A model generated the notes under the pieces. It saw only the letters and a list, made by a program, of their open reading frames with translations. It was not told where the DNA came from and ran no database searches. The translations under genes and the position numbers were made by a program. Below are positions 3,002-58,760 of a stretch of DNA of 64,000 nt, piece by piece. Origin of the DNA: Escherichia phage vB_EcoM_Skers. The stretch's first letter is position 1. Each line of letters begins with the position of its first letter. Location: the sequence record MW748999.1; one strand, 5' to 3'.

Positions 3002-3029
3002 ATTATACATCCTAACATCAGCATGTCAA
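3002..3029 (-). promoter_or_regulatory. sigma70-type early promoter TTGACA-N16-TATAAT (second copy of the 1777-1804 cassette)
   Basis: Minus strand GTTGACATGCTGATGTTAGGATGTATAATACAAACATCGAAACAAAGGAGGATAAAATTATG; shares about 33 bp with the 1746-1790 cassette. Confidence 0.7.
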
Positions 3030-3051: not shown

Positions 3052-3081
3052 GCAATAAAAAAGCCTCCCCGAAGGGAGGCT
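3052..3081 (-). terminator. rho-independent terminator downstream of gene 32
   Basis: Minus-strand RNA AGCCUCCC-UUCG-GGGAGGCU followed by UUUUUUAUU; 8-bp GC-rich stem with UUCG tetraloop. Confidence 0.8.
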
Positions 3082-7708: not shown

Positions 7709-7716
7709 TATAAATA
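7709..7716 (+). promoter_or_regulatory. T4-type late promoter TATAAATA for gene 34
   Basis: Exact TATAAATA 29 nt upstream of ATG 7745, followed by SD AAGGAG. Confidence 0.7.
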
Positions 7717-12819: not shown

Positions 12820-12827
12820 TATAAATA
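12820..12827 (+). promoter_or_regulatory. T4-type late promoter TATAAATA for gene 36
   Basis: Exact TATAAATA 34 nt upstream of ATG 12861. Confidence 0.65.
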
Positions 12828-20367: not shown

Positions 20368-20736
20368 TCACTTAACAAAGATTTTCTTTAATGCTTTCAG
20401 GATCGTTGCTTCCGGTGCTTCTTCCGGTGGAGGAAGCAATTCTACCACTTCCTCTTCCAACTCGATATAGTCTACCAGATATTCTACATAGAATGCAAGT
20501 GCTTCCATGAAATTAGATGCTACATCCGATTCACCACAAGCGCCTACATGCATTGTATAAACATCACTGCGATCAAGTTTGTGGATGCTTCCCAGATAGT
20601 TCCGGTTATACCAGACTTCCCACACTTTCAGCTTTCCGGTTTTGGTTGATGTTTTATAATCGGTTTCGTAATGATGCAATTGACGTTGCAAATCATTGAT
20701 AATAACACATTTTTCGTAATTGTTTTGAATTTCCAT
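20368..20736 (-). CDS. hypothetical protein (122 aa)
   Basis: ORF track; co-directional tight packing. Confidence 0.5.
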   Translation of the reverse strand: MEIQNNYEKCVIINDLQRQLHHYETDYKTSTKTGKLKVWEVWYNRNYLGSIHKLDRSDVYTMHVGACGESDVASNFMEALAFYVEYLVDYIELEEEVVELLPPPEEAPEATILKALKKIFVK

Positions 20737-33969: not shown

Positions 33970-34143
33970 TCATGACACGCGCACATTTTTATCATAGTAC
34001 CCGCCATTAATCCCGCGCGGGGCAGTTAATCCCTGTTTGCATTCTTTACCACATTCAGGGCATTCTGCCTTTTCACGCTCGGAAATTTTGCGGATTTTCT
34101 GAAATTGACCGTGTTCTTCACAAGAATAATCGTATAATGGCAT
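33970..34143 (-). CDS. FmdB-family zinc-ribbon protein
   Basis: MPLYDYSCEEHGQFQ...CPECG matches the FmdB zinc-ribbon signature; start at ATG 34143 with SD AAGGGG (track start 34224). Confidence 0.5.
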   Translation of the reverse strand: MPLYDYSCEEHGQFQKIRKISEREKAECPECGKECKQGLTAPRGINGGYYDKNVRVS

Positions 34144-34144
34144 A

Positions 34145-34813
34145 TTATCCCCTTTGTTTCTTAACTGAATTTGGATCTGGATTTTCTGGTAGGTCTTCCA
34201 GACCCATAGCATAACGTTGTGCATAGATTAGCATAAGAATATCGCGAGCGCAATCATGAATTGCATCATGTGCGATAAAACCATCTAGCGTACCCATTGG
34301 TAACGGACACTCACACATCCCGCGATGCATCAATGTACGCTCAATGGCGGTGCGAACATCTCGGATATTCCAGAATCGCACAGGTTCAAGGCTGAACGTC
34401 TCTCGTGTATTGTGTGCACGGCGGATCATATCAACTAGTAACGGAATATCAAACGCATTACCGCGTGACCACAATACGGATTTAACCGGATCTACTCCTA
34501 CGGCTTCACAGAATGCGTTAAAACGCGCTAAACCTTCTTTAGTTGATACTTCCGTACCATTTGTGATTAATTGCTTTCTCATGCCTTCTGAGGCGGTATT
34601 CTTCCACCATTCAACCACACCATGATCAAACACCCTTACACCTTTCTGGGAAGGAATATCAAATTTTACCAGAAAGGAATTGTCCACCAGTTCTTTAAAT
34701 GTAGGTGGATTGTGCGGATCTTCTTTAAATCCGATTGCCGCCATATTGATCACCGCCCCATCAGGCGGATAACCTAAACTTTCAAAGTCAATCATTAAAT
34801 CCACTGGAAGCAT
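34145..34813 (-). CDS. dexA: exonuclease A (DnaQ-like 3'-5' exonuclease)
   Basis: Matches T4 DexA by recall (MIDFESLG, HGVVEWWKN, CPLPMGTLDGFIAHDAIHDCARDI, YAMGLEDLP); start at ATG 34813 with SD GGAGG (track start 34885). Confidence 0.85.
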   Translation of the reverse strand: MLPVDLMIDFESLGYPPDGAVINMAAIGFKEDPHNPPTFKELVDNSFLVKFDIPSQKGVRVFDHGVVEWWKNTASEGMRKQLITNGTEVSTKEGLARFNAFCEAVGVDPVKSVLWSRGNAFDIPLLVDMIRRAHNTRETFSLEPVRFWNIRDVRTAIERTLMHRGMCECPLPMGTLDGFIAHDAIHDCARDILMLIYAQRYAMGLEDLPENPDPNSVKKQRG

Positions 34814-34814
34814 T

Positions 34815-35057
34815 TTAAATATCCTCCGCGATATGCCGGAACAACTCCAGATCGTTTTTATCCAGAATGAAACCGCTACAATCAATAATCCCGTTACCGT
34901 AATTATCGGTTAACAGTCGGTCCGTTGCCATGTATGCGCGTACTTTGTTGTTAAAATTCATTACATGTTGTGCATAGTCACAATGAATCTTTTGACGGTT
35001 CCACGCGACAATTGATTGTAGATGTATTACATTAGCCATATTATTAATAACAACCAT
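34815..35057 (-). CDS. hypothetical protein (80 aa), third of three tandem small genes
   Basis: Track ORF 34815..35120; ATG 35057 preceded by SD GCGAGGG and the TGATATG stop-start junction. Confidence 0.5.
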   Translation of the reverse strand: MVVINNMANVIHLQSIVAWNRQKIHCDYAQHVMNFNNKVRAYMATDRLLTDNYGNGIIDCSGFILDKNDLELFRHIAEDI

Positions 35058-35290
35058 ATCAAAACCCTCGCTTAGTGGAATGTTCTGGCATTTTATTGAT
35101 ACATACAGCTTGGTAGTCACGAGATTTTTTTGACGAATTAAGAGCTACAGCCAAAAAATCCTGTAACTGTTCGTTTGTCATTTTTGGCTTACACCGCGTA
35201 TCTAAACCCTTCGTTCTTCTAGCTTCATTAGCCATATCAAAAACCTCGCTTAGTGAAATGCTCGATCATTTTATTGATACATGCAGCTTC
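35053..35290. repeat. two ~58-bp direct repeats (about 85% identical) at 35053-35110 and 35231-35290 spanning consecutive stop/start junctions
   Basis: ccatatcaaaaccctcgcttagtggaatgttctggcattttattgatacatacagctt versus ccatatcaaaaacctcgcttagtgaaatgctcgatcattttattgatacatgcagctt. Confidence 0.7.
35059..35235 (-). CDS. hypothetical small protein (58 aa), shares C-terminal tail with the next gene
   Basis: MANEARRTKGLDTRCKPK...AVCINKMPEHSTKRGF; stop-start TGATATG; not in ORF track. Confidence 0.45.
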   Translation of the reverse strand: MANEARRTKGLDTRCKPKMTNEQLQDFLAVALNSSKKSRDYQAVCINKMPEHSTKRGF

Positions 35291-35404
35291 ACTATCGCCG
35301 GACACGTTCCAGCCGTATAGACCCCATCTAAAGCACATGGTAACAGTTCCATTGTGACGGCTTACCGTCACATCATTAAATTCTGGGATACTTCGCATAA
35401 TCAT
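35237..35404 (-). CDS. hypothetical small protein (55 aa)
   Basis: MIMRSIPEFNDVTVSRHNGTV...AACINKMIEHFTKRGF; SD GAGGAA overlapping the dda stop; not in ORF track. Confidence 0.45.
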   Translation of the reverse strand: MIMRSIPEFNDVTVSRHNGTVTMCFRWGLYGWNVSGDSEAACINKMIEHFTKRGF

Positions 35405-35414
35405 AATAATTTCC

Positions 35415-36806
35415 TCAAATATAGTCTACTCGATACCGCGCACGGGTAACACCCACATATAATAACTGCATTGCCAATTCAAAGTCAACATTGTCTGTAC
35501 ACATGCAAGGAGTATACAGGAACACGCGGTCTACGCTGATCCCTTGTGACTTATGAATGGTGCAAGCTGGTAATGCTTTTACATTCAAGAACATACGCTT
35601 CATCGTCCAGAAGGAATCCCAATCTGGTTTAAATTTTGGATTCTCTTTCTTCATTTCGCGATATTGTCCGGCGACCGTATTCAGATAGATAGAGAAAATG
35701 TTCTTCTGACGTTGTTCTGTCAGAATGTTGATTTCTACTAAATCTGGTTTATCTGTAGTGATTCCGACTGCATCTAAACCGACTTTCTGATTTAGGATTT
35801 CTTTGTCTTCGTCATCATCGACGCTTTCCACTTTCAGAGTATAGCCTAAAACTGGTTGCGGATCTACCCCCGTGCAACGTAATGTAAATTCGCGCGGGAT
35901 GACCTCTTTAACTCGGATCATCTCACCATTGTTAAAAATAACATTGGGAATCTTCTTCCCGCGTTCATCTCGCAGATATTCGATCAATGGTTCCTGAGTA
36001 ACCAGAATTTCATCTACAATCACTGGTTCATCGGTGTTATAAACGCGCTTACGCACAATTTCATTGAGTTTTTCGACGCTCTTGTTAGTGTAGGCCAGAA
36101 TACGGTTTTCTAGCAGGTCTTCCGGCGTTTTAACGGTTTCGAAATAATGCTTCATAAACTCCGGCAGAGTTGAGCTATGGAATACACCCTCGTTGCCGCA
36201 CTGCTTTTCGAATACCCATTTACCATTACGGACAGCGGTCGCCACATCAATGATCGGTGCATTAGATCGTTTAATTTCTGTCAACTCCACGTTTTGAAAA
36301 TTTTCATCCGTGAAGAAAGGAGAGATCGACGTTGCACCGCTCGGATCAACTGGTCGTAACTGGTGCGGATCGCCAACTGCAATAACAACAATTCGACCGT
36401 TGATACTCTTCATGAGAATATCAAATAGTTTCTTATCGACCATACTCGCTTCATCAACAATGATGATCTGAACATCATCTAGCTTAGGAGTATCTTTTTG
36501 TTCAAATACTTGAGTATCTTCATAGTTGGTTGGATTTAGTCGCAGTAGTGCATGTAAAGTAAATGCTTGACGACCTACCGCCTTACTCAAAACTTTTTTA
36601 GCCTGGTGGGTAGGCGTTGCCAAAACCACACCAGTTACACCACGGCGGACCATTTCCTGAACAATGAATTTCATCATTGCGGTTTTACCAGTACCCGCCG
36701 CACCACGGACAGTTGTATGCTTCTTTTGTTCAATACGTTTCATTAGAACATCAAAAGCATGTTTTTGCCCGTCTGTTAACATATCGAAAGTTAATACTCT
36801 GCTCAT
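35415..36806 (-). CDS. dda: Dda DNA helicase (SF1B)
   Basis: Walker A GAAGTGKT, IIIVDEASMVD, KRSNAPIIDVATAVRNGKW, YVGVTRAR; strong match to T4 Dda by recall. Confidence 0.9.
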   Translation of the reverse strand: MSRVLTFDMLTDGQKHAFDVLMKRIEQKKHTTVRGAAGTGKTAMMKFIVQEMVRRGVTGVVLATPTHQAKKVLSKAVGRQAFTLHALLRLNPTNYEDTQVFEQKDTPKLDDVQIIIVDEASMVDKKLFDILMKSINGRIVVIAVGDPHQLRPVDPSGATSISPFFTDENFQNVELTEIKRSNAPIIDVATAVRNGKWVFEKQCGNEGVFHSSTLPEFMKHYFETVKTPEDLLENRILAYTNKSVEKLNEIVRKRVYNTDEPVIVDEILVTQEPLIEYLRDERGKKIPNVIFNNGEMIRVKEVIPREFTLRCTGVDPQPVLGYTLKVESVDDDEDKEILNQKVGLDAVGITTDKPDLVEINILTEQRQKNIFSIYLNTVAGQYREMKKENPKFKPDWDSFWTMKRMFLNVKALPACTIHKSQGISVDRVFLYTPCMCTDNVDFELAMQLLYVGVTRARYRVDYI

Positions 36807-37156
36807 TATCCTAAAATCCTCACCTTGCGAACACAGATAGTATTGAGTTCTCGCCGTACCCGTTCTTTTTCATATTCAGGAATTTTATATTCGATACCAT
36901 CCCGAACAATTTCAGAAGACCGGATTATGCCAAATTTTCGTTTAGGTACAACCTTGTATTTCGGTTCACCCGCCAATAGACTCTCACAATAATCTATCTG
37001 ATCACACATTGACGCTAACGCAGCATCATGTGTTTCGCAAGTTAGGACGCGACCCTTCGCGTCCACTGAGTATTGAAAGAATCCGTCTTTATCACGATAA
37101 CATACAGCAAATACATGCATTATAAACCTACCTTCGCTTTCATCAATTCGATCCAC
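36806..37156 (-). CDS. hypothetical protein (116 aa)
   Basis: ORF track. Confidence 0.5.
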   Translation of the reverse strand: MDRIDESEGRFIMHVFAVCYRDKDGFFQYSVDAKGRVLTCETHDAALASMCDQIDYCESLLAGEPKYKVVPKRKFGIIRSSEIVRDGIEYKIPEYEKERVRRELNTICVRKVRILG

Positions 37157-37875
37157 GACGCATCAATCGGAAGCCCGTATTTCACGCGTTCTTTTTGTGC
37201 TGGCGTTAAGTTCTCATACTTAGAAAGAGATTCAATCAAAACGCTGGTATATTTTAGCACGATTTCGGTATTGTTTGCAATAGCCTTAAGTTTTTCTTCT
37301 TTCTTGTTGATTTCGCTAAGGGCTTGCTTGAGATCTGCAATTTTCTGATAACGTTCTTCCATACGTAAGAGAGTATTTTTAATCGCTCGCTCGGCTGCCT
37401 CTGCTTTCTCCGGTTCGTTGTGCTTTTTGTGGCGCTCTATTGCTAATTTCTTTTCTTCGATTGCCATTTCCTGATTTTTGATGCGATTCTCGTTAAGTTC
37501 GATCCACTCGATGTACTTCGCACGTAGGGCAATTTCATCATCAGAAAGTTTACCGTTAGTTCCTAGTTCCTGGATCTCTTTAAGAGATTCGATAGTGTGA
37601 TTGCCACGGAAAGAATTGTATTTCAGTTTAACCGGAATTACATTGCCATCAACATATCCCAGATTGCAATCAATGCGCTCTAAGGAGAGTCCGTCATCAC
37701 CTTCACCGAAAGCCTCACCTGAATAGGCACAATGAGTCTGGCGGTAAATGTTACGCACAGTGACTAAGCTCATAGAGAAGTCTTTGTTGCGACGTGAAGC
37801 ACCAGCCATGATAGAGTTCAGCCGGAAAACAACCAGCGCCAATTCTTCGTTAGATTTAAAAGCAAACAGTTTCAT
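37120..37875 (-). CDS. hypothetical protein with long coiled-coil C-terminal half (occupies the T4 srd position)
   Basis: ORF track; SD AAGGAG; N-terminal Cys/His segment HCAYSGEAF...LERIDCNLGYVDGNVIP, then a Glu/Lys-rich heptad region. Confidence 0.5.
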   Translation of the reverse strand: MKLFAFKSNEELALVVFRLNSIMAGASRRNKDFSMSLVTVRNIYRQTHCAYSGEAFGEGDDGLSLERIDCNLGYVDGNVIPVKLKYNSFRGNHTIESLKEIQELGTNGKLSDDEIALRAKYIEWIELNENRIKNQEMAIEEKKLAIERHKKHNEPEKAEAAERAIKNTLLRMEERYQKIADLKQALSEINKKEEKLKAIANNTEIVLKYTSVLIESLSKYENLTPAQKERVKYGLPIDASWIELMKAKVGL

Positions 37876-37904
37876 AATTGATTCTCCTTAGTTGGTATGT
37901 GTGT

Positions 37905-37933
37905 ATTATTGTCTATCTGGTTTGTGCTGTCAA
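37905..37933 (-). promoter_or_regulatory. early promoter TTGACA-N17-AATAAT
   Basis: Minus strand TTGACAGCACAAACCAGATAGACAATAAT. Confidence 0.45.
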
Positions 37934-37936
37934 CAC

Positions 37937-38440
37937 TTAAATTAAAGAAAATTTGTAAATCTCTATCAGATCGCCATTACACGCGTAAACTTCCTCGATC
38001 TCATCAAGGATCATGGTCGTCCCTGTCTTGTATATGCACTCGCGCTCATCTGCCAACATAGCATACAAAGACAGTCGAGTAGTCGGATTGTCATACTCTT
38101 TAGACACCACTCGGTCAATAGCATGTTCGTAATAATTCATGCAAGGCTTGGTAGGTTTTATTGCAATAATCTTTCCTGTTGCATAAACATCGGTTGCAAA
38201 GTCCTCTGCTGTTGATTGCAGTGGCGTAAAGCTCATAGGACGCTCTACAACGAAAGAATCGCCTACAATTAAGGTATCCAGCTTACGGCCTTCTCTTTTG
38301 CTCACACCGCGATACAAGGCTTCATGATGCACTAACCGCTCAGTCTTTTCAATCAATCCATTAAGGATCGACATATCGATATTTTCTTTAGAGTTCATCA
38401 CCTCATCAATGATGTTAAGTTCTTCTGGTGTAAATTGCAT
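37937..38440 (-). CDS. putative ADP-ribosyltransferase (Mod-like), tentative
   Basis: 167 aa at the T4 modA/modB position; candidate R-S-E triad (YRGVS, LQSTAED, ADERE); weak evidence. Confidence 0.4.
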   Translation of the reverse strand: MQFTPEELNIIDEVMNSKENIDMSILNGLIEKTERLVHHEALYRGVSKREGRKLDTLIVGDSFVVERPMSFTPLQSTAEDFATDVYATGKIIAIKPTKPCMNYYEHAIDRVVSKEYDNPTTRLSLYAMLADERECIYKTGTTMILDEIEEVYACNGDLIEIYKFSLI

Positions 38441-38473
38441 AATAAAAAAGCCTCCAATCTTTCGACGGGAGGC
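38441..38473 (-). terminator. rho-independent terminator whose 3' arm doubles as the SD of the downstream gene
   Basis: Minus-strand RNA GCCUCCC-GUC-GAAA-GAU-UGGAGGC followed by UUUUUUAUU and then AUG. Confidence 0.7.
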
Positions 38474-38502
38474 ATAATAAAACCATTATAGAGTAGTGTC
38501 AA
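38474..38502 (-). promoter_or_regulatory. early promoter TTGACA-N17-TATTAT immediately upstream of the terminator hairpin
   Basis: Minus strand TTGACACTACTCTATAATGGTTTTATTAT, 8 nt after the gene 56 stop. Confidence 0.55.
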
Positions 38503-38509
38503 CTAATTT

Positions 38510-39034
38510 TTAGTAGCCGCGTTCTTGACGGGCGAAGTTTTCAGCATTTTTCAGATAGTACAGAATAAAGAGTTCTTGAGCGTCAATACCCAGCGGGATC
38601 ATCTTTGACAGAATGAAGTGGATCGCGTCCACAAATTCAAATTTCACTTCAAGCTGATCTTCCGGTGACAGTTCAGAGAATTTACGCGCTCGCGCTTCCC
38701 CGTGGTTCTTTTTCCACATTTTCCAGATTGCACTTGCATCTTTACCATTGGACATTCCACCCAGCGATGTGTAAAGCTCTCGTGTTTCGTCTGCGATAGC
38801 GTCATCCATCCGTTGCATCCAATCCAGCATTTCACCGCAAGTCTCTAGCTTAGTTGGATTTGGGACCCAATCAAATTTTTCGGATAATGCAACCTGCAAA
38901 CCAGTTTGCATTTCGAGCATCACCTGAAACGGATCTTTACCTTCTGCAATCGCGTGATGATATGCGGCGATAGCCGCGTTAATATCTTTTTCGTTAACCA
39001 GACCAGCACAAGAATTAAATTCTGACATATTCAC
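38510..39034 (-). CDS. 56: dCTP pyrophosphatase gp56 (MazG-like)
   Basis: Matches T4 gp56 by recall (DPFQVMLEMQTGLQ, ELYTSLGGMSNGKDASAIWKMWKK, SPEDQLEVKFEFVDAIHF, YYLKNAENFARQERGY). Confidence 0.85.
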   Translation of the reverse strand: MNMSEFNSCAGLVNEKDINAAIAAYHHAIAEGKDPFQVMLEMQTGLQVALSEKFDWVPNPTKLETCGEMLDWMQRMDDAIADETRELYTSLGGMSNGKDASAIWKMWKKNHGEARARKFSELSPEDQLEVKFEFVDAIHFILSKMIPLGIDAQELFILYYLKNAENFARQERGY

Positions 39035-39042
39035 CTCATTAA

Positions 39043-40071
39043 TTAAAATTTACAATATTTCATAAACCGCATTTTAGCCATCAGACCTTGTACGGTGTTC
39101 TCTTTGATATATTCCATGATCTGGTCGCGTGTAGCGCCCTCGTCCTGAATCATGGCGTTAACGTCTTTAGAATGCCACGGGCAGCGATCCCACAAAACAA
39201 TCTTTTCCCCTGCATTGATAAACTTTTCCAGTCGGTGCATTGTATCGGCAGACCGTGGTTCCGCATCAAGTACAAACACTCGCTGATCAGGGAAAGGAAT
39301 TTCATCTAATCCCAAAGTACCGCCAGTAATTGCACACCCGTTATCAATAAACAATGAATCGATCGGACCTTCTAAGAAATACACAGGTTTACTCGGATCG
39401 GCGCGTTCAAGACCATAGACCTTACTCGCTAACTCATGAGTTTTAATCGTCATATATTTGGTCTTTCCGTAATCCTTTCTCAATGCTCGCCCCTGAATGG
39501 ATTCTATCTTGTTCTCGCGGTTAAAGATAGGAATCACTAAACGCGGTTCAGGTTGTGGATTCTTGAAAGTATCAGCCTTAATGTGATTTGCTACCTTTTG
39601 CCATTCTCTCGTGAAATACAGAAGATCCCATTTATCGTGAGGAATACAGCGATCACTGACATACTTTATTATAGGATGATTAGCCGGAAGAGTATCTAAT
39701 CTCTCGCAGAAAGGCAATGTTTGCACTTTCTTAATCTCCGGCTTTTCTACCTTTTTCAGTGGCTTGAACGTGGTGTTCTTGTGGTCGCCTTGTTCCTTCC
39801 GTCTCTCCATAAGCCATTCCCTGAATAGGTCCGGCTTATACTGTTTGAGAAATTCACCTAACGGCTGATTGTAGTTACAGTTGAAACAACCACAACGCAA
39901 ACTATCTTTATAGGTATAGATACGGAATCGCGCTTGAGTATGATTTTTCTTTGAGTCACCGCAGATCGGACAACTACAGACCAGCGTAAATGAGCTAGTA
40001 TGCAACCGTTTAAAATTTCGTTCGCCGTATATGGCTTTTTCCGCTATTTCATAATCTGCGTAGTAAATCAT
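39043..40071 (-). CDS. 61: DNA primase gp61
   Basis: 342 aa, same as T4; zinc ribbon CSCPICGDS...CGCFNCNY and Toprim-like C-terminal half. Confidence 0.85.
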   Translation of the reverse strand: MIYYADYEIAEKAIYGERNFKRLHTSSFTLVCSCPICGDSKKNHTQARFRIYTYKDSLRCGCFNCNYNQPLGEFLKQYKPDLFREWLMERRKEQGDHKNTTFKPLKKVEKPEIKKVQTLPFCERLDTLPANHPIIKYVSDRCIPHDKWDLLYFTREWQKVANHIKADTFKNPQPEPRLVIPIFNRENKIESIQGRALRKDYGKTKYMTIKTHELASKVYGLERADPSKPVYFLEGPIDSLFIDNGCAITGGTLGLDEIPFPDQRVFVLDAEPRSADTMHRLEKFINAGEKIVLWDRCPWHSKDVNAMIQDEGATRDQIMEYIKENTVQGLMAKMRFMKYCKF

Positions 40072-40080
40072 AATAACCTC

Positions 40081-40284
40081 TTATAGCTCAAATTTCATGA
40101 AAGTTCCTACACTTTCATTTTCATTCTCTCCGTTTTCATCTAAGCCAAATTTGTAGACACTACCATCTGGCGATGTGTAAGAGAATACACGAAAACGGCC
40201 TACCGAATCAAGTTCTGTAAATTCATATTCTTTTCCGGCTTCAAAAAGTGCATATGTGCTTTTAAGACATTTCATCGTAATCAT
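40081..40284 (-). CDS. hypothetical small protein (67 aa)
   Basis: ORF track; ATGA overlap with the upstream micro-ORF. Confidence 0.45.
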   Translation of the reverse strand: MITMKCLKSTYALFEAGKEYEFTELDSVGRFRVFSYTSPDGSVYKFGLDENGENENESVGTFMKFEL

Positions 40285-40424
40285 TTAAGCGCCACCGACA
40301 ACAGAATGAGAACTACACCAACATACATTGTGATCTCGGATAACTTTTCTGTTTTTGTTTTGTGTCCAGATAATCCGAAAACAACAACACCGATAATAGC
40401 GGACAGCAAGCCAACGATAAACAT
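40281..40424 (-). CDS. predicted 47-aa two-transmembrane-helix micro-protein
   Basis: MFIVGLLSAIIGVVVFGLSGHKTKTEKLSEITMYVGVVLILLSVALK; stop overlaps the next start (ATGA); not in ORF track; SD weak. Confidence 0.35.
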   Translation of the reverse strand: MFIVGLLSAIIGVVVFGLSGHKTKTEKLSEITMYVGVVLILLSVALK

Positions 40425-40431
40425 GATGATA

Positions 40432-40608
40432 CTAAGCACCGTCTTTCTCCTTTTTGCGTTTTTCTTTACCCGCTACACTAGGTCCACGATTGGTAATAGA
40501 TCCGCTCGTTTCACCTGCTGCGATCTTCTCAGGATTGCCGCCAGCATCGCCAGCGGTCATATCTTCTTTGAGTTTATTTTCTTCAACAAACTGTTTAAAG
40601 CCAATCAT
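40432..40608 (-). CDS. predicted 58-aa Lys/Gly-rich micro-protein
   Basis: ATGA overlap with the stop of 40605..40982; not in ORF track. Confidence 0.35.
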   Translation of the reverse strand: MIGFKQFVEENKLKEDMTAGDAGGNPEKIAAGETSGSITNRGPSVAGKEKRKKEKDGA

Positions 40609-40982
40609 AGAATAATCTCTTTCAGTAAGTCAACAATCTGGTCTTTCGTCAGTTTATCCTGATTCTCTACAATCTTGATAACACAAGCGTTAACATCTTT
40701 TCGAGTAACGCGGGAGATCGTTTTAATACGATGAAACGGTTCGTAGAAATATACTGCTTCATTATAGAGCGCAGCAATTTTTCGACGCATTTGATCTTTA
40801 TCCGACAAGAAAACAAGTGCTGTTTTATGACCTTCTACACCCGCCACGTTATATAGTTCAGCAACACCCCAGCGACCTTCCGGTTCAATCATTCCGGCGT
40901 GTTTACCGTCGATAAAAATAAGAATATCTCCGTTGAATGCGGTTTTGAATGCTACATCTTCCGGCGTAATCATATTTTTCAT
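40605..40982 (-). CDS. hypothetical protein (125 aa)
   Basis: ORF track. Confidence 0.5.
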   Translation of the reverse strand: MKNMITPEDVAFKTAFNGDILIFIDGKHAGMIEPEGRWGVAELYNVAGVEGHKTALVFLSDKDQMRRKIAALYNEAVYFYEPFHRIKTISRVTRKDVNACVIKIVENQDKLTKDQIVDLLKEIIL

Positions 40983-41012
40983 AATATAGTCTCCTTAGAG
41001 TTTCATTATAGA

Positions 41013-41648
41013 TCAATCGAATGTAGAAAGCAAATGTTTTGTTTCTTTCAGTTGTCGTTCAAGATCTTTGCGTTTCTCTTTAAGTTGCATTTTAGCATTA
41101 TTTCGCTGTTTTTCAACATCTTTATCAATGCTCTTATTCCAGTTATCAATATCAGAATAAGTTGGCATACCCAATTCTAGACCTAATGCGGTTGGATACA
41201 GGGTAACAGTCCATAAACCGCTAATCTTCTTAAATAGGTCGGGGTGTAGTGTACTATCTACATCTTCCGGTGTCAACTCTTTTTCTTCTTTCAGTGGTGG
41301 GATCTCGTCATATGGTTCCAGTGCATTTACTTTAATATCAGATACCTCATCAAAGAATCCGCGTACATCCGCAGGAAATACACAAGCAATTTCCCAACCG
41401 TGATCACGCAGAGAAGTAATATTTTTCACTCCCCCACCATGTGTGATGATTGATGTGACATTGCCATCAAGGTCCACCGAATTTACGAGAAATGGCTTAT
41501 CGTCTGTCAGATCATTATAAAACTGTGCTTCGGCTGTAGTCATCTCCAGAAACAGATCTCGGATCGGACGACCATCAGGTGCGTTACCTTCCTTGAGAGT
41601 ATAAAAGCGACTTACGATCCATTTTGGCGGTAAAGCATTAGCGATCAT
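41013..41648 (-). CDS. hypothetical protein (211 aa)
   Basis: ORF track. Confidence 0.5.
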   Translation of the reverse strand: MIANALPPKWIVSRFYTLKEGNAPDGRPIRDLFLEMTTAEAQFYNDLTDDKPFLVNSVDLDGNVTSIITHGGGVKNITSLRDHGWEIACVFPADVRGFFDEVSDIKVNALEPYDEIPPLKEEKELTPEDVDSTLHPDLFKKISGLWTVTLYPTALGLELGMPTYSDIDNWNKSIDKDVEKQRNNAKMQLKEKRKDLERQLKETKHLLSTFD

Positions 41649-41698
41649 GTTATATCTCCTATCAAATCATTCACCAGCGCCCCGCAGGGCGCATTTTA

Positions 41699-43111
41699 TT
41701 AGAAAGTCATGTTATTTGCTAGCTCGTCGAGTTTTTCTCGTTTCTCGGCTTGCTGTGCGCTTTGTGGTTTAACTTGTGCATTCTCCTGATCTGCGATCTG
41801 GTTTGGTACTTCATACCAACGCTGATTGCCTTTCTTCACACCAACGTTAAACCGTGAATAATAGTTCTTGTCACCGTAACGAGACTTGATCTGCTTCATG
41901 AGTTGGACGCCCATTTTAGCCAGGTCTTCGGTTTCGATAACACCCAACATAAAGTCGGCAGTAGCCGGAAGACCTGCTGATTCAGCGGTATCACTCATGT
42001 TAAGGTCGGAAGCATCCCAACCCGCGCGGGTAGTCTGTGCCGCAGTCCAACCAACAACATCCCACTTAACAAAAAATCCTCGCAGTTCTTCCGCAATCGC
42101 CTTAACTAGTGTGTAACTATTTTCAGAGTATACACGCAAGCGAGACGATGCGCAAATCCCAAGATAGTCAACAATCACAACATCAGGTTTAAACTGTTTC
42201 TTGAGTCGCAATTCATTCATTAACGCCTCAAAGTGATTGGAGTTTGCGCCACCAGTCGGATACTGCTTGATCATCAATTTTCCAACCGGACGATCTCCGA
42301 TCTTCTTATTCTTAACACGCTTCATGCGTGCGGAATATTCCGCAAAAGAAACATTACCATTATCCAATTCATCTAATGTAATGTCAAGCAAGTTTGCGTC
42401 GATACGTTTTGCTACTACATGCTCTGCCATCTCCATTGAGATATACAATACATCATAACCACATTCCATATAATCCGCAGCAAGAGAACACAAGCCAAGC
42501 GATTTACCAACGTTTACACCAGCAAGCAACACATTTAGCGTTTTTCTTTCCGCCCCTCCTTTCGTGATTTTATTCAACATCGGCAGCTTAAACGGGATCT
42601 TATTCGCCTTAGTCTGATATAGCAAGAATCGTTTTTCAAAGTCATTAAACCAGTCATGACCTACATCAGAATCAAACGTAATGGATAGTGCTTCCTGCAT
42701 GATCTCAGGAATAGCACCCTCACTCGGCAATTTCTTATTCTGTTTCTCTTTTGGTAGTTGTGCGTTCGCCTGAATCTCTAGCGCCCGTGACATTGCATTG
42801 TACATAGCACGGTCACGAATAAATTTTTCGGTTTCCTTCATTAACCAATCAAGGTCTTCCGGTGTATTCTCCAGCGAATCGAGAAGATTTTTAGCCCCTT
42901 CATATGTTGTCTGATTGCCTCTCTCCTTGTCTAAAGCAATCTGTAATGCAGTTGGCGTAGGAATATTGGAATATTCGTCTACGTGCTTTTTAATCAGCTT
43001 ATAAATCAGTTTTTCTTCGTCTTCGGTGAAGTAGTCCGCTTTAAGGTGAGGCCATACATTCGTAAAGAATGCGCCATTGTAAATCAACTGTGAAAAGATA
43101 GTTTTAATCAT
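41699..43111 (-). CDS. 41: replicative DNA helicase gp41 (DnaB-like)
   Basis: Walker A GVNVGKS, RecA-like core; 470 aa (T4 475 aa); position between 61 and uvsX. Confidence 0.9.
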   Translation of the reverse strand: MIKTIFSQLIYNGAFFTNVWPHLKADYFTEDEEKLIYKLIKKHVDEYSNIPTPTALQIALDKERGNQTTYEGAKNLLDSLENTPEDLDWLMKETEKFIRDRAMYNAMSRALEIQANAQLPKEKQNKKLPSEGAIPEIMQEALSITFDSDVGHDWFNDFEKRFLLYQTKANKIPFKLPMLNKITKGGAERKTLNVLLAGVNVGKSLGLCSLAADYMECGYDVLYISMEMAEHVVAKRIDANLLDITLDELDNGNVSFAEYSARMKRVKNKKIGDRPVGKLMIKQYPTGGANSNHFEALMNELRLKKQFKPDVVIVDYLGICASSRLRVYSENSYTLVKAIAEELRGFFVKWDVVGWTAAQTTRAGWDASDLNMSDTAESAGLPATADFMLGVIETEDLAKMGVQLMKQIKSRYGDKNYYSRFNVGVKKGNQRWYEVPNQIADQENAQVKPQSAQQAEKREKLDELANNMTF

Positions 43112-43425
43112 ACATAGCTCCCAACTACACGCATAACAAAGGTCTTGAGTTTATACCAGAAAGTTTCTTTTTTCAACTTTTCTTCTGCTTCTTTGATCTG
43201 CGCGGTTAACGCCTTAATGACGTGTGGATATACCACATCACGATCTGACGGCGTGGAGTAGTCGACCACAATACCTTTAGTGTCTGGATCGTATTCAACA
43301 TTATGAATATAGACAATATGATGTTCTCCCTCTTCATCAACAATTATCAGTTCCTGGATAACTGTCTTCATTGCTTCTTGAATCAAGCTGTGTGCTTCTT
43401 CTAAACTTGTTGGTTTCTTATCCAT
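43108..43425 (-). CDS. 40: gp40-like protein (assigned by position between uvsX and 41)
   Basis: 105 aa with hydrophobic C-terminus; ATGA overlap with gene 41; assignment by synteny only. Confidence 0.45.
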   Translation of the reverse strand: MDKKPTSLEEAHSLIQEAMKTVIQELIIVDEEGEHHIVYIHNVEYDPDTKGIVVDYSTPSDRDVVYPHVIKALTAQIKEAEEKLKKETFWYKLKTFVMRVVGSYV

Positions 43426-43480
43426 AATATAATCCTCTCTAGATATGAAAAAGGGGCACGTAGCCCCTTTACTACCATTG

Positions 43481-44551
43481 TTATGCTAACATATCTTCGA
43501 TTTCTTTGTCAACTGCTTCGTCGCTGATCACTTGCCCCAGCTTATAATGATCGTTGATTGCTTCGTTAAACTTATCGTTTGTCAGAAGTGGTTTCCAGAA
43601 CTCAATGCTATTGGTTTCTTTAGCACGGAACTTGCGTTCTTCGGTTTCCATCTCTCCGGTCTCGGTATTTAGGATTGAACGAGAATACCAGCCGTTTGAC
43701 GGTTTCACTACCCAGCCTAACTCTACAGCCAATTCCAGCAAGCCGGAATAAGGATCGATGCCACCGCTAAATGTTACGCTAATCGGGAACTTAGATTTTT
43801 CTTTAACGGTTCGTGATTTTTCCGCATTCAGGATAAAATCATAACCAGTAATTTCGGTTCCTTCTTTCTGCTGACGACGACCAATAATGAAAACTTCATT
43901 GGCTGAATACATCGCGCCAGTACCGCCGGACATAACGGTCTTACTAAACATTTCTTGCGTTTCGTAAGTGTGGTTAATAGCGATGCACGGGATATCATTC
44001 ATAGTCAGATACGGCGTAACCATACGGAACAAGCCTTTAAGTGCTTTCGCTCGCGTCATATCCTGTGCGGATTTCTCATTAATCGCGTCTTCAACTTCTT
44101 TTTTACTTGCTAAGTTACCGATTGAGTCAATAAAGATGATCACTTTATCTTCACGGGTAATTTGCTCAAGCTGGTTCATGATTTCAAATTTAAGTTCTTC
44201 GATGTTCTTGATTGGAACATGCACCACGCGATCAGGATCTACGCCCATAGATTCCAGATAAGCGGATGTAATACCGAACTCAGAATCAAAGAACAAACAC
44301 GCCGCATCAGGATTCTGTTTCATGTATGCACTAACACAGGTTAATCCCATGTTTGATTTAAAGTGCTTAGACGGACCAGCAAAGAAAATCAGACCAGATT
44401 GAAAGCCTTTTTTAAGATCACCTGAAAACGCAATATTCAGCATCGGGATCTTAGTGCGAGTATTTGTTTTTTCGTTAAAGAAGCTGGATTTAGACAGTAC
44501 CGCAGTAGTTTTCAGGGTAGAGTTCTTTTTCAGTTTTTCCAGTACAGACAT
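43481..44551 (-). CDS. uvsX: UvsX RecA-like recombinase
   Basis: Matches T4 UvsX by recall (KIPMLNIAFSGDL, FAGPSKHFKSN, INHTYETQEMFSKTVMSGGTG, EKSRTVKEKSKF). Confidence 0.9.
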   Translation of the reverse strand: MSVLEKLKKNSTLKTTAVLSKSSFFNEKTNTRTKIPMLNIAFSGDLKKGFQSGLIFFAGPSKHFKSNMGLTCVSAYMKQNPDAACLFFDSEFGITSAYLESMGVDPDRVVHVPIKNIEELKFEIMNQLEQITREDKVIIFIDSIGNLASKKEVEDAINEKSAQDMTRAKALKGLFRMVTPYLTMNDIPCIAINHTYETQEMFSKTVMSGGTGAMYSANEVFIIGRRQQKEGTEITGYDFILNAEKSRTVKEKSKFPISVTFSGGIDPYSGLLELAVELGWVVKPSNGWYSRSILNTETGEMETEERKFRAKETNSIEFWKPLLTNDKFNEAINDHYKLGQVISDEAVDKEIEDMLA

Positions 44552-44562
44552 TATTAATACCT

Positions 44563-44751
44563 CTATTCAGTTAATCCGTAATACTTTAATTGCTTCATTG
44601 TTATTCGATCTTTGTAGTGCTCTTGAATTAACTTTTTCATCGCACCAACATCGATCGTCACAAATACTTCGTTGCTGTGATTTCCGTGAACTTTCTTGAA
44701 ATGCTCTATGCCTTCCTCACGTCCACGTTTAATCTTTTCAATGTATCTCAT
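44563..44751 (-). CDS. hypothetical small protein (62 aa)
   Basis: Track ORF 44563..44790 begins with GTG; ATG at 44751 (MRYIEKIK). Confidence 0.4.
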   Translation of the reverse strand: MRYIEKIKRGREEGIEHFKKVHGNHSNEVFVTIDVGAMKKLIQEHYKDRITMKQLKYYGLTE

Positions 44752-44795
44752 AATATATTTCTCACATTGACGGGTATCGTCACCCAACACCCGCC

Positions 44796-44823
44796 ATTAT
44801 ACACACTTTATCTTAAATGTCAA
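44796..44823 (-). promoter_or_regulatory. strong sigma70-type promoter TTGACA-N16-TGTGTATAAT (extended -10) just downstream of gene 43
   Basis: Minus strand TTGACATTTAAGATAAAGTGTGTATAAT. Confidence 0.65.
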
Positions 44824-47491
44824 ACAGGTCAGTCAGAGAAGCAACTTTTTCATATTGCAGCTTTGCAGCCGTGGTAATGTTCTCCAGTGGTTTGACGAAA
44901 GTCTTATTAAACAACAAAGGCCAGTCCAACCACTTCAACACCTCTGATTCAATTTCTGGCGGAATACGAGTACCGGACAACCAACCAAAACAGATTTCTC
45001 CAAACGGATTTCGATCTTTAAGCGGTACAATCATAACCTTCTCGCCTTCACGAATCGGATCTAGTCCGAATTTTCGAGCATTACGATTATAACACAATAC
45101 ACTCTTAACCGCATACGGACAACCCTTAATCGGATACCCGTTTGAATCGCTGTATTTCTGTAGGTTGTTTGCAGATGATACCGCAGCAACCTCAAGATAG
45201 TCAAGTTTTCTAAACTCTTGCTCAAAAATACCGTAGTATTCCTGCAATGACTCTTCACCTTCCTGCAACATACGGCGAATACATTCTTTCAGTGATTTCT
45301 GACATGCTTTAGGGGTGGAGCTACGTTGCGTTTCCAAGCCCATGATTTTTAGCTTAGGCTCAGCAAAGCGCGTTCCTTCCATATCCCAAACATTAAGAGC
45401 ATAACGCTTTTTGCCAGTCCAGAATCCACCGATACCCGCAGATTTCAACGGAGGACCAGCAATTGCCTCACGGTCCATAAACATCAAGTGCTCATAGTTG
45501 TTCATGTACTCGCATAACTCGCGATATCCCTTGTCGATAATCGGTTCCATTCTATGTTTACCGAAATTATCAAGGAAGTCAACAAGTTTTTCGGTATCGT
45601 CGAAACGATCTTCCCCGCCAACCTTATCAACAACATTGTTAACCAGCACATAAACGGAGTCAGTATCACAATAACGAACATATGCAAAATCAGTTGTTCC
45701 GCAAAGCTCGTTTAAGTATTCGTTAATCTTGCGCTCAATCCACTGAATTGCAAGCTGACCGAACAAGGTGATCGCACTAGCGTTGCGGAGATCATAAAAA
45801 CGGAATTTAGGATTCCCCAACGCACCATAAAGGGAGTTGATCAAAACTTTTCGAGAAAGCTGGTTTGTATTGCACAAGATCGACTCGTCTTTACATTCTT
45901 CCAGCAATTTCTCTAAGGCATCTTTACTTAATTCAGAAAGCATCGATTTAAACGCTTCATCGAAGTCGTGACGTACTTCAACGCTATAGCTAATGGTTCC
46001 CCCATAAACATGATTTTCATCGTGTAGAATCGCTTTACAGAGTTCAGCATTGCGATCACATGCCAACATCATGTTTTTGTACTGCTTACGCTGATCGAAT
46101 ACCTTTTTAATCTCAATAGGTACGATACCGTGAATATCTTTTCTATACATCCATCCGTTAGGCGAGCAAGAATACTCATCACTCGGACGTGGTGCAGTTT
46201 TATTGATATACTCGTGCATCGGTGCAGCATCAAAAGATCCGGCGATTGTTTCCGGCGAAATGTTAACCTGTCGAATAATAGATGGATACAGACTTGTTAG
46301 GTCAAAGCTCATCATCCAACGGTAAGCATTCGGCACAGGTTCTTTTACAAATGCGCCTGGATACGTCTGCTTAGGATGTATCTTATTTTCCGGTACTACT
46401 TTACCCTCAGCTTTCAGAGATCCGAAGATAATAGCATCCCATACTTTCATCGGGTTATAAACATGGTTAAATTTAATCTTTGCATAGAAACATAGGCTAT
46501 ACACCAGATCGATAAATCCGCGCTTTTTATCAATCGCCAGCACACGATCAACGTCGCCGATGTTATAATCGATGTAAAGTTGATGGTTGTCATCACGCAA
46601 TTTCTTTAACGGACCATCATAATCAACCTTACCGATTCCGGTCTCATATTCAGCAACATAATCTAATGCATATGTTGGTTGAGTCGTAAAGCTAAACTTC
46701 TTGTACAGGTCAATATAATCAAGGCTTTCGATCCCCATGATCGTAAATGCTTCACGCTCGTTGCCAAAATCATCCTGTGAGATTCGGGATTTAATCTTAC
46801 CGCACGGGCTTAGACGGTTTGCCGTTCGACTTCCAAACTTATTCCCGATACGTTTAATGATATATGGAATATCGAATGTTTCTGTGTTCCAGCCAGTGAA
46901 ACCAACGGGTCGGTTTTCCTCAAAGAATCGGATGTATTCTAACAGCAATTCATCTTCTGTGTCATAGACGTTATAAACAACGCGCTCTACAATATCAGGT
47001 CGAAGAATAGACTTGCTAGATTCCCAGATTTCACCGTTTTTTCCTTTCAAATCAAATACAAAGAAACGATCATGTACGGAATCATAATGCGTAATTGCAT
47101 CGATAGGATATTTCGCTTCTTCTGGTTTAGGAAATTCTGGGGCAGTGACCTCAATATCAACCCATGCTACACGGATTTTATTTCGGTCATATCGAATCTC
47201 GCCTTTATATGTATCGGACAGATAGGAGATGATAAAATCATCCATCCCTAGTGCCTCCTGCCCCATTTCTCCCATCTTTTTACGCCATTTGTTGGCCTCG
47301 TTCATAGATGGGAATTTTTTAGCAATGCAAGGCTTGCCGTAGATATCTTTATAATTCGTAACCATACCAGGCGCGGCATGATGAAATAAAGTTGGCATAT
47401 ATTCAACGTAACGCTCTTGTTCTTGTCCAGCATCATCAATATAACGCTCGTAGATCTTATCACCCACTCGCTCACATGACAGAAAATACAT
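44813..47491 (-). CDS. 43: DNA polymerase gp43 (family B)
   Basis: Strong match to T4 gp43 by recall (ERYIDD, YDRNKIRVAWVDIEVT, FDLTSLYPSIIRQVNISPETI, NSLYGALGN, YCDTDSVYV); start at ATG 47491 with SD AAGGAG (track starts at GTG 47521). Confidence 0.9.
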   Translation of the reverse strand: MYFLSCERVGDKIYERYIDDAGQEQERYVEYMPTLFHHAAPGMVTNYKDIYGKPCIAKKFPSMNEANKWRKKMGEMGQEALGMDDFIISYLSDTYKGEIRYDRNKIRVAWVDIEVTAPEFPKPEEAKYPIDAITHYDSVHDRFFVFDLKGKNGEIWESSKSILRPDIVERVVYNVYDTEDELLLEYIRFFEENRPVGFTGWNTETFDIPYIIKRIGNKFGSRTANRLSPCGKIKSRISQDDFGNEREAFTIMGIESLDYIDLYKKFSFTTQPTYALDYVAEYETGIGKVDYDGPLKKLRDDNHQLYIDYNIGDVDRVLAIDKKRGFIDLVYSLCFYAKIKFNHVYNPMKVWDAIIFGSLKAEGKVVPENKIHPKQTYPGAFVKEPVPNAYRWMMSFDLTSLYPSIIRQVNISPETIAGSFDAAPMHEYINKTAPRPSDEYSCSPNGWMYRKDIHGIVPIEIKKVFDQRKQYKNMMLACDRNAELCKAILHDENHVYGGTISYSVEVRHDFDEAFKSMLSELSKDALEKLLEECKDESILCNTNQLSRKVLINSLYGALGNPKFRFYDLRNASAITLFGQLAIQWIERKINEYLNELCGTTDFAYVRYCDTDSVYVLVNNVVDKVGGEDRFDDTEKLVDFLDNFGKHRMEPIIDKGYRELCEYMNNYEHLMFMDREAIAGPPLKSAGIGGFWTGKKRYALNVWDMEGTRFAEPKLKIMGLETQRSSTPKACQKSLKECIRRMLQEGEESLQEYYGIFEQEFRKLDYLEVAAVSSANNLQKYSDSNGYPIKGCPYAVKSVLCYNRNARKFGLDPIREGEKVMIVPLKDRNPFGEICFGWLSGTRIPPEIESEVLKWLDWPLLFNKTFVKPLENITTAAKLQYEKVASLTDLFDI

Positions 47492-47523
47492 AATATAAAC
47501 TCCTTCACTTACGAAAGACACTC

Positions 47524-47552
47524 ATTATAGGGGAATCGACCTAGTTTGTCAA
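47524..47552 (-). promoter_or_regulatory. early promoter TTGACA-N17-TATAAT for gene 43
   Basis: Minus strand TTGACAAACTAGGTCGATTCCCCTATAAT, with TAGGGG...CCCCTA palindrome around it. Confidence 0.6.
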
Positions 47553-47573
47553 TACCCCTATCCCATCAGTATC

Positions 47574-47936
47574 TTATCGCCCGATCTGATATTTCTCTAT
47601 CAGCGTCCACTCTTCTTTCTGTTTGAAAGACAGTACACGGAAATTATTAACTTCGGTAGTTTCAAAATCACTATCAATCAGGGTACACAGATTCCACTGC
47701 GCCAGAAGTTTTGCAATGTTATTACGGCGTAATTCATCTTCCCACGTCATTTTAACACTACGACCATCTAATTTCAACAACTCCTTGAAATGAACGATGT
47801 AATAGCGCCCTTTCTTCTGGAGAATATGACAAGACTGATACAGTGTCTTGTCACGATTGTTGGCAATGCCGCAGCGGGTTAAAGTTTCCTTAATTTTAAG
47901 GAAGTTTTCAGGACTAATCAAATTAATTTCAATCAT
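47574..47936 (-). CDS. regA: translational repressor RegA
   Basis: Matches T4 RegA by recall (ETLTRCGIANNRDKTLYQSCHILQKKGRYYIVHFKE, NNFRVLSFKQKEEW). Confidence 0.9.
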   Translation of the reverse strand: MIEINLISPENFLKIKETLTRCGIANNRDKTLYQSCHILQKKGRYYIVHFKELLKLDGRSVKMTWEDELRRNNIAKLLAQWNLCTLIDSDFETTEVNNFRVLSFKQKEEWTLIEKYQIGR

Positions 47937-47937
47937 T

Positions 47938-48516
47938 TTACCACCTTTCTATAATCTTTTTAAGTCGTTTCCTTTCTGTCTGATTCTTAGTAACACCCGC
48001 CAAAAGTTCATCGGTCGCATACGGTTTAATGTGCTTCAATAACTTGTCCATATATCCCTTTTCATTAGCCAAATCGAGATAAAACCGGGCGTCATCCATA
48101 TTTACACAATATGCTTTCGCCACTGCCATTAAAACCAATTTTTGGTCCAATTCTTCTGTTAGTTTAGCCCATTTACCGTATCGTTTCCCCTTAGAAATAC
48201 TCTGTAAGAGATAATCAAAATGCATTTGATCTGGGAGGCCATGACCGATTAAATTCATCACATACGCGCTATATAGGCAATCTGCGTGCTGGGAAAGAGC
48301 GGTATTAATCCATCTCTGATTGTATGCAGAATTATTCCCAACATTCACGCGCTGTTTATCTAAGGTGATATGATCCATCAGAGCAAATAATGCATTGTCG
48401 GTTTTCTCGGTGAATGTATCCGCTAATTCAGACACCTTTTCCCAATCACGAGAGCGCCATGCAATTTCATGCTCGTTTAATTGTGTATCATCTTCACCGA
48501 AAAATTGACCTAACAT
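47938..48516 (-). CDS. 62: clamp loader small subunit gp62
   Basis: Matches T4 gp62 by recall (QLNEHEIAW.S.DW, YVMNLIGHGL, KGKRYGKWAKL). Confidence 0.85.
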   Translation of the reverse strand: MLGQFFGEDDTQLNEHEIAWRSRDWEKVSELADTFTEKTDNALFALMDHITLDKQRVNVGNNSAYNQRWINTALSQHADCLYSAYVMNLIGHGLPDQMHFDYLLQSISKGKRYGKWAKLTEELDQKLVLMAVAKAYCVNMDDARFYLDLANEKGYMDKLLKHIKPYATDELLAGVTKNQTERKRLKKIIERW

Positions 48517-49515: not shown

Positions 49516-49543
49516 ATTAAAACGGGGAGTATTTACACTCCCC
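49516..49543 (-). terminator. intercistronic hairpin / attenuator between 45 and 44
   Basis: Minus-strand RNA GGGGAGU-GUAAAU-ACUCCCC followed by GUUUUAAU. Confidence 0.5.
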
Positions 49544-58490: not shown

Positions 58491-58760
58491 TCAATAATCA
58501 TAAATCGCCCTCAGTTCTTTATAGCCTCCAATGTGCTCGTTGTCAATGAATATCTGGGGGTATACAAACCGGAGGCTCTTTGAGTTCAGCCTCCCCGCCA
58601 GTTCTTCAATCATATCACGGTCGGGAATAATGTCAACCCCGACCTGCTTGAATACTGGTTTAAGTGTATACGGAATACCCAGATCATCCAGTAGCTTCAT
58701 TGCACTAATACAACCATAACAATGATAAGCCTCTTTCGGTATACCGTATATCTCGATCAT
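58491..58760 (-). CDS. nrdH: glutaredoxin-like protein NrdH
   Basis: 89 aa with CYGC redox motif in a glutaredoxin-like context (IEIYGIPKEAYHCYGCISAMKLLD). Confidence 0.75.
   Translation of the reverse strand: MIEIYGIPKEAYHCYGCISAMKLLDDLGIPYTLKPVFKQVGVDIIPDRDMIEELAGRLNSKSLRFVYPQIFIDNEHIGGYKELRAIYDY

Follow-up and report, generated by a model that had tools for sequence, protein, structure and literature searches.

The junction described here lies within a window of 64,000 nucleotides (the whole stretch of DNA that was analyzed) from an RB49-like coliphage (Krischvirus). Over a 1.4-kb stretch at the junction, the window is 99.5% identical to coliphage RB49 and 99.1 to 99.6% identical to the other listed Krischvirus genomes. 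Read along the minus strand, the genes are ordered gp61 primase, gp56 dCTPase, ModB-like ADP-ribosyltransferase, Srd, a small ORF, and Dda. Gene 56, whose product is named gp56 in the RB49 and GEC-3S annotations, is the final gene of the upstream unit, and the modB-like gene opens the downstream unit. The modB-like product shares about 30% identity with T-even ModA/ModB and is annotated modB in RB49; a Pfam search of this protein returned no match, while PHROGs gave one. The gene is highly conserved (98.8 to 100% across 58 records). Between gene 56 and modB is a gap of 69 nt, and the features in and around it are as follows, in reading order.

39043-40071, minus strand: gp61 primase.
38510-39034, minus strand: gene 56, dCTPase / NTP pyrophosphohydrolase (from the ORF list; PHROG 173, E = 5e-37).
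38512-38510, minus strand: TAA stop codon of gene 56.
The next 7 nt, minus strand: AAATTAG, between the stop codon and the -35 hexamer.
38497-38502, minus strand: -35 hexamer TTGACA (annotated as minus_35_signal in GEC-3S; the same in all relatives).
38480-38496, minus strand: promoter spacer, 17 nt.
38474-38479, minus strand: -10 hexamer TATTAT (annotated as minus_10_signal in GEC-3S; the same in relatives).
38466-38467, minus strand: predicted transcription start (standard sigma-70 geometry, 7-8 nt past the -10).
38450-38473, minus strand: terminator hairpin GCCUCC-C-GUC-GAAA-GAU-U-GGAGGC, 24 nt.
38451-38455, minus strand: Shine-Dalgarno sequence (SD) GGAGG of modB, within the 3' arm of the hairpin and 10 nt 5' of the AUG.
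38441-38449, minus strand: U-tract UUUUUUAUU (U6 at 38449-38444, then AUU).
38440-38438, minus strand: AUG of modB.
37937-38440, minus strand: modB-like ADP-ribosyltransferase gene, 167 aa (PHROG 832, "RNA polymerase ADP-ribosylase," E = 1e-20).
37905-37933, minus strand: next early promoter, TTGACA-17-AATAAT, before srd (found by scan; annotated in GEC-3S).

These elements, their positions, and their overlap can be read directly from the DNA. An initial annotation had described TTGACA, 17 nt, and TATTAT, followed by a hairpin, a U-tract, and the ATG of the next gene, and all of these are present on the minus strand in that order; its count of 8 nt between the gene 56 stop and TTGACA is corrected here to 7 nt. 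The A/T-rich sequence TAAAAATTAG, which includes the gene 56 stop, adjoins the -35 hexamer on its 5' side, and the hairpin begins 36 nt past that stop. The lower stem of the hairpin pairs GCCUCC with GGAGGC over 6 bp (5' arm at 38473-38468, 3' arm at 38455-38450); above it come a C.U mismatch at 38467/38456, an upper stem of GUC/GAU, and a GAAA loop. The initial annotation also assigned the SD to the GGAGGC arm, and we agree, as GGAGG in this arm is the sole SD-like sequence from the hairpin to the modB start codon. Its spacing of 10 nt to the AUG compares with about 8 nt in the other cassettes of the window.

Which transcription units does this junction separate? On the upstream side, the preceding minus-strand terminator in the RB49 list (Nolan et al. 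2006, PMC1524935) is 40<--uvsX, so the hairpin would end a unit of ~5 kb, g40-g41-...-61-56, which has internal early promoters at window positions 42387, 41276/41116, and 40633. On the downstream side, the promoter before srd, which is Pe:8927 in Nolan et al. 2006 (PMC1524935), comes without a stem-loop, and modB transcripts should therefore continue into srd. The Srd-like protein itself (window 37123-37875, minus strand) matches PHROG 1400 (E = 9e-74), and its residues 20-180 also match HNH-endonuclease PHROGs at about 1e-12.

An independent scan recovered the 56/modB promoter as an 11/12 match to sigma-70. At 11/12 or better, the window has 33 matches on its minus strand and 1 on its plus strand, compared with 1.8 +/- 1.3 in dinucleotide shuffles, which amounts to an 18-fold enrichment of near-consensus promoters on the minus strand. 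By arithmetic from the shuffle rate, the chance of such a match within a 69-nt gap is ~0.002. In RB49, Nolan et al. 2006 (PMC1524935) predict the early promoter Pe:9496 (9446-9496, minus strand); with an offset of +29020, taken from the gene 56 stop, the 3' end of their model falls at window 38466, within the hairpin. The score of the 56/modB promoter in the published RB49 early-promoter HMM is low (11.3, 7th lowest of 51). On the 5' side of the -35, the context TAAAAAnTAGTTGACAC is common to 56/modB and other cassettes. The spacer holds a conserved TATAAT at 38490-38485, merely 6 nt from the -35, and this short separation makes it unusable as a -10 for TTGACA. A GT-rich stretch 5' of the -10 is a known trait of T4-type early promoters.

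Judged from its sequence, the hairpin with U6 after the gene 56 stop is a predicted intrinsic terminator of canonical form, with five G-C pairs in the lower stem, a stem of 6+3 bp, and U6 adjoining. Its computed stability is -15.0 kcal/mol (z = -4.5), a value equaled by none of 200 shuffles and ranging from -13.8 to -15 across foldings. Nolan et al. 2006 (PMC1524935) list an RB49 TransTerm terminator at 9430-9453, "modB<--56," with a score of 100 and a 10-bp stem; with the +29020 offset, it coincides exactly with window 38450-38473. The Makalu GenBank record also annotates a terminator here, with the RBS inside. A simple terminator scan, which required a contiguous stem and a loop of no more than 8 nt, missed the hairpin because the internal mismatch breaks the stem, and Rfam gave no family in 34000-44000 at E <= 1.

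Elsewhere in the window, the gene 32 terminator (3054-3081, minus strand; RB49 140943-140964) reads GCCUCCC-UUCG-GGGAGGC-UUUUUUAUU. Its arms and U6AUU tail match those of the 56/modB hairpin, which would make the latter a terminator type that the phage uses elsewhere. At gene 32, the layout is the canonical one: the terminator comes first, the promoter at 3029 follows ~20 nt later, and a separate SD precedes the ATG. At 56/modB, the elements are compressed, and the terminator arm doubles as SD. Because the matching arms of the gene 32 terminator have no SD role, the G-rich 3' arm at 56/modB need not have been selected as an SD. The initial annotation had proposed that read-through from gene 56 terminates at the hairpin, and both the TransTerm score of 100 and the gene 32 terminator, with its identical arms and tail, support this in silico; RNAs terminated at the U-tract would end shortly 5' of the modB AUG. 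The 56/modB arm sequences also occur in reversed order in a hairpin GGAGGCU...AGCCUCC at window 58590-58636 (minus strand).

Sigma-70 geometry places the predicted start at C38467/G38466, just beyond the 5' arm of the lower stem. The initial annotation had the start inside this arm. Its consequence stands, in that RNA from the promoter loses the arm, but the predicted start is at the 3' edge of the arm and not in its middle. Folding of both transcript types, which had been suggested as a check, gives the expected contrast: read-through RNA forms the hairpin, and RNA from the predicted start is not significantly structured (-2.3 kcal/mol, z = +0.5). Because this start lies past the 5' arm, the computed cost of opening GGAGG drops from 10.6-10.8 kcal/mol (~10.7) in read-through RNA to 1.8-3.0 kcal/mol in RNA from 38467/38466, which upholds in silico the earlier claim that promoter RNA frees the SD. 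RNAs from 38470, 38469, 38468, or 38463 give 1.6-3.4 kcal/mol, so that opening stays cheap at all six starts tested from 38470 to 38463. In contrast, the cost is about 9 kcal/mol for RNA starting at or upstream of 38473, and RNA from near 38478 folds the whole terminator (-17.5 kcal/mol). Under the standard model of intrinsic termination, a U-tract without the lower stem should be unable to terminate. A literature search found no paper on Krischvirus transcript-end mapping or transcriptomes; the 5' ends of some RB49 early transcripts have reportedly been mapped.

The arrangement recalls the PeSLs (promoter-early stem-loop cassettes) of RB49, phi1, and further T4-like phages, which Arbiol et al. 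2010 (PMC2839356) defined in RB49 and phi1 and which number about 51 per genome. A PeSL comprises the upstream gene's stop codon, surrounded by A/T-rich sequence, a sigma-70 promoter close to consensus, a stable stem-loop that may take any of five positions, an SD, and an ATG (PMC2839356); PeSLs are described from hyperplastic regions or from beside plastic genes. Arbiol et al. 2010 (PMC2839356) propose that the stem-loop terminates incoming transcription, which then restarts. In their lacZ fusions (PMC2839356), promoter/terminator activity was found only for PeSL193/192, 206/205, and 211/210; 56/modB is not among these. The stem "frequently" has a G-run, loop, and C-run, which is typical but not obligatory (PMC2839356, PMC4122927), and neither PeSL paper (PMC2839356; Comeau et al. 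2014, PMC4122927) treats translation.

RB49 and phi1 belong to the same species group as the window phage, and the likeness of 56/modB to their cassettes extends to each part. TTGACA-17-TATTAT (11/12) corresponds to the near-consensus TTGACA-N17-TATAAT; TAAAAATTAG with its stop stands directly before TTGACA, a context that recurs at other cassettes; a stable stem-loop abuts the promoter, starting at the base after the -10; and the 3' end of the cassette has an SD and then an ATG, with the SD within the stem. The differences concern the stem-loop. Typical RB49 stems read G-run, loop, C-run, whereas 56/modB has GCCUCC on the 5' side and GGAGGC on the 3' side. Typical stems also occupy the space between hexamers or span the -10, without a U-tract and with a separate SD, whereas the 56/modB stem comes after the -10, has a full U6 tail, and contains the SD.

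A survey of cassettes places these differences in context. In the window, 39 of the 40 combinations of promoter, SD, and ORF are on the minus strand, and many of the cassettes have a GC-rich stem-loop lying between the two hexamers, spanning the -10, or following it. A survey of 139 kb of RB49 gave 74 such cassettes, 47 of them with a hairpin of -8 kcal/mol or better, which lies over the -10 in 32 cases, lies between the hexamers in 7, begins at most 8 nt after the -10 in 5, and begins farther downstream in 3. The strong hairpins of both the window and RB49 are nearly all G-rich on the 5' side and C-rich on the 3' side, and in both surveys the other strong cassette hairpins lack a comparable uninterrupted U6 tail. 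Among the surveyed cassettes, only 56/modB combines a stable hairpin and U-tract with an SD that is part of the 3' arm. Cross-tabulating the published RB49 lists gave 13 juxtaposed terminator/promoter pairs: 11 have the terminator first, with a gap of 2-20 nt, and in 1 the terminator is inside the promoter. The modB<--56 pair is the only one with the promoter first; its terminator overlaps the 3' end of the promoter and carries the SD.

Two other layouts came to light in these surveys. Hairpins of the form GGGRGUAGUAAKAUACYCCC, with the -10 in the loop and no U-tract after, are found at many junctions (window 22082, minus strand; RB49 38220, 131500, 131725, 132006, 158746, and others). At window 43455-43512 (minus strand; RB49 about 14433-14492), TTGACA-18-TAGCAT (10/12) is followed by the terminator AAAGGGGCUACGUGCCCCUUUUU, which starts about 13 nt past the -10, downstream of the promoter's own predicted start. 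This terminator is published as 40<--uvsX; the 10/12 promoter is absent from the published list and so is probably spurious.

The 56/modB cassette was seen solely in Krischvirus-like genomes, at no less than 97% identity in 55 phage records. In all other T4-like phages, homology ceases at the gene 56 stop; a small ORF whose beginning overlaps this stop is present in Tequatrovirus, Marfavirus, and Gelderlandvirus, and no independent cassette was found at the 56 junction in other T4-like genera. Across all copies, changes are limited to the first 6 nt of the spacer (substitutions among relatives at 38496, 38494, 38492, and 38491), the mismatch base 38456, and the length of the T-run (5-7). Phage genomes, IMG/VR, and metagenomes yielded only near-identical copies in which the hairpin stem is constant throughout, and this invariance leaves no covariation to examine. 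The ModB of a metagenomic relative, L005 (IMGVR_UViG_3300005711_000037), is 75% identical. In L005, the bodies of gene 56 and modB have 50-78% DNA identity to the window, with the exception of one internal 40-nt stretch of gene 56 (38766-38727) at 95%; identity rises to 90-98% over a 159-nt island (38540-38382) that contains the cassette. The cassette sits between core gene 56 and modB, where both gene bodies are mosaic against this one relative and synteny with other genera breaks. From the aligned sequences, the pattern of conservation would fit either functional constraint or a PeSL-type recombination junction.

Two further observations concern these alignments. In L005, the sequence from 37914 onward (srd, dda) is mostly about 90-100% identical to the window, and the mosaic divergence suggests that alleles may have been exchanged between bounds set by two cassettes. 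The last 51 nt of gene 56 (38510-38560, minus strand) have 82-94% DNA identity across many T4-like genera, far above the rest of the gene.

Altogether, we consider it likely that the junction is a compact PeSL-type regulatory element that separates two early transcription units. In the mechanism we propose, polymerase from the g40-g41-...-61-56 unit would transcribe the complete hairpin and U6, and the inferred termination efficiency is such that most of it would stop a few bases 5' of the modB AUG. In read-through RNA that escapes, the anti-SD-like 5' arm GCCUCC would hold the modB SD GGAGG in a duplex. Initiation by host sigma-70 polymerase would also occur at TTGACA-17-TATTAT, with RNA beginning at about C38467/G38466. 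Since this RNA would start past the 5' arm, no terminator should form, the U-tract should be read through, and the SD should be free; we infer a difference in translation between the two RNAs. How much ModB is made would thus depend on the gene's own early promoter, and not on transcription accumulated from upstream. As a strictly conserved gene, modB would presumably need this promoter, as it would otherwise sit behind a terminator with its SD buried. The initial annotation likewise held that the Mod-like gene would be uncoupled from upstream transcription, a view favored, by analogy, by the role proposed for the RB49 and phi1 cassettes (PMC2839356). With the terminator downstream of the promoter, the promoter would be unprotected from occlusion by incoming polymerases. 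Overall, the interpretation is supported in silico by every available test.

It is worth asking whether a simpler reading would suffice. The hairpin could merely be the terminator of the g41-61-56 unit, with a promoter match that is weak or unused and modB made at a low level from read-through. The hairpin is a canonical terminator, the promoter has a low HMM score (11.3), and this is the sole RB49 junction with a promoter ahead of the neighboring terminator, all of which is consistent with such a reading. Cloned ModB-type enzymes are toxic to E. coli, and toxicity of this kind makes low expression conceivable. However, an 11/12 match at ideal spacing has a chance of ~0.002 in the 69-nt gap and stands on a strand enriched 18-fold, the hexamers are invariant while the intervening spacer is variable, and the PeSL 5' context TAAAAAnTAGTTGACAC is present. 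Moreover, with the SD of read-through RNA buried by ~10.7 kcal/mol, a strictly conserved gene would go nearly unexpressed. We thus regard this reading as unlikely.

The cassette could instead be kept mainly as a recombination module, through PeSL shuffling of gene 56 and modB alleles, with the regulatory overlap a by-product of compaction. This reading is compatible with the regulatory element that we favor, and recombination is a role proposed for PeSLs (PMC2839356, PMC4122927). In its favor, the 159-nt cassette island is 90-98% identical in L005 between bodies at 50-78% (38766-38727 at 95%), and homology to all other T4-like genera ends exactly at the gene 56 stop. However, purifying selection on the signals explains the island equally, and conservation at the 3' end of gene 56 extends to other genera regardless. 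In addition, beyond the -35 context and the terminator arms, there is no extended similarity to the other cassettes of the window, which would leave little substrate for ectopic exchange. As the main reason for keeping the cassette, recombination seems improbable to us.

A further reading has every modB transcript carry the full hairpin, from a start 5' of 38473 (e.g., using TATAAT at 38490-38485), so that the hairpin would be an attenuator, a 5' stabilizer, or a translational brake, and no switch would exist. TATAAT at 38490-38485 is indeed kept in all relatives, and the cassettes at window 49578, 43512, and 27978 have their stem-loop past the predicted start. But only 6 nt separate this TATAAT from TTGACA, and the hexamer at 17 nt is CTAAAA, which leaves TATAAT no usable -35; RNA from near 38478 forms the terminator (-17.5 kcal/mol) and would stop after about 35 nt; and the GT-rich feature of early promoters explains the conservation of the TATAAT region. 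Such a layout is very improbable, and we rejected the embedded TATAAT as a real -10 on account of its missing -35 and the self-termination expected of its RNA. Least probable by far, and rejected as well, is a reading in which the endoribonuclease RegB targets the GGAG of the 3' arm, with promoter RNA cut early, read-through RNA protected, and ModB made in a short pulse: RB49 does encode regB, and RegB cleaves GGAG in early SD regions and is blocked by secondary structure, but the modB context GGAGGCUUUUUU departs from the strong-site consensus GG*AGRAYARAA, with its A-rich 3' side, and would be a poor site at best.

The regulatory element that we favor has a parallel in T4. As reviewed by Uzan & Miller 2010 (PMC3014915), long transcripts of T4 e, soc, 49, and I-TevI sequester their RBS in a helix, and a promoter located within the 5' strand of that helix yields translatable RNA. 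At 56/modB, similarly, the SD is paired in read-through RNA (in silico), and RNA from the predicted internal start lacks the helix's 5' strand. The two differ in the promoter: the T4 internal promoter is late (gp55, TATAAATA) and gives early-off/late-on control, whereas the 56/modB promoter is early sigma-70, with neither TATAAATA nor KTAAATA in or near the cassette. They also differ in that the 56/modB helix doubles as a full intrinsic terminator, and there is no sequence homology. On the T4 map, soc occupies the corresponding region, downstream of gene 56.

Over a wider interval, the minus strand from 38510 to 48099 (within 9.5 kb upstream) has no TATAAATA, ATAAATA, or KTAAATA; the "hypothetical late promoters" annotated in RB49 have the sequence GTAAATA and correspond to window positions 48099 and 49530. 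Given the absence of late motifs from 38510-48099, a T4-style early/late switch was rejected, and the 56/modB element would instead insulate modB from upstream early transcription.

Much of this is already known from the literature, which holds the cassette class, the locus predictions, and the switch logic. The 56/modB promoter and terminator were individually predicted in 2006 (Nolan et al., PMC1524935), and both appear, exactly, in the RB49 lists of junctions. What the initial annotation left as an open inference belongs to a described class, the PeSLs. Our addition is modest: this is the only RB49 junction with the promoter-then-terminator order and the SD in the terminator arm. It is tempting to regard 56/modB as a distinct PeSL variant, with the promoter before the terminator, the 3' arm as SD, a dual barrier acting on upstream RNA alone, and its own promoter bypassing both; the case for this is, in our judgment, evenly balanced. 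If true, ModB synthesis would be confined to its own promoter, as an early-promoter counterpart to the late-only control of T4 e and soc. If verified, a single 24-nt hairpin would insulate a host-modifying gene from upstream transcription in a dense phage genome, acting on both transcription and translation of foreign transcripts alone. The cassette raises no new question, and its hairpin could be a compact insulator part for synthetic biology.

The late-promoter motif is strongly avoided in the early region. Its core, ATAAATA, occurs 2 times in 64 kb (7709-7716 and 12820-12827, both on the plus strand), where 23.4 +/- 4.5 are expected, and KTAAATA occurs 12 times in the window versus 37.8 +/- 7.7 expected. 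The GTAAATA at window 49530-49536 (minus strand; RB49 20510-20516) forms the loop of GGGGAGU-GUAAAUA-CUCCCC in the cassette at 49578. This stem-loop directly follows the early promoter upstream of gene 44, an overlapping early/late layout.
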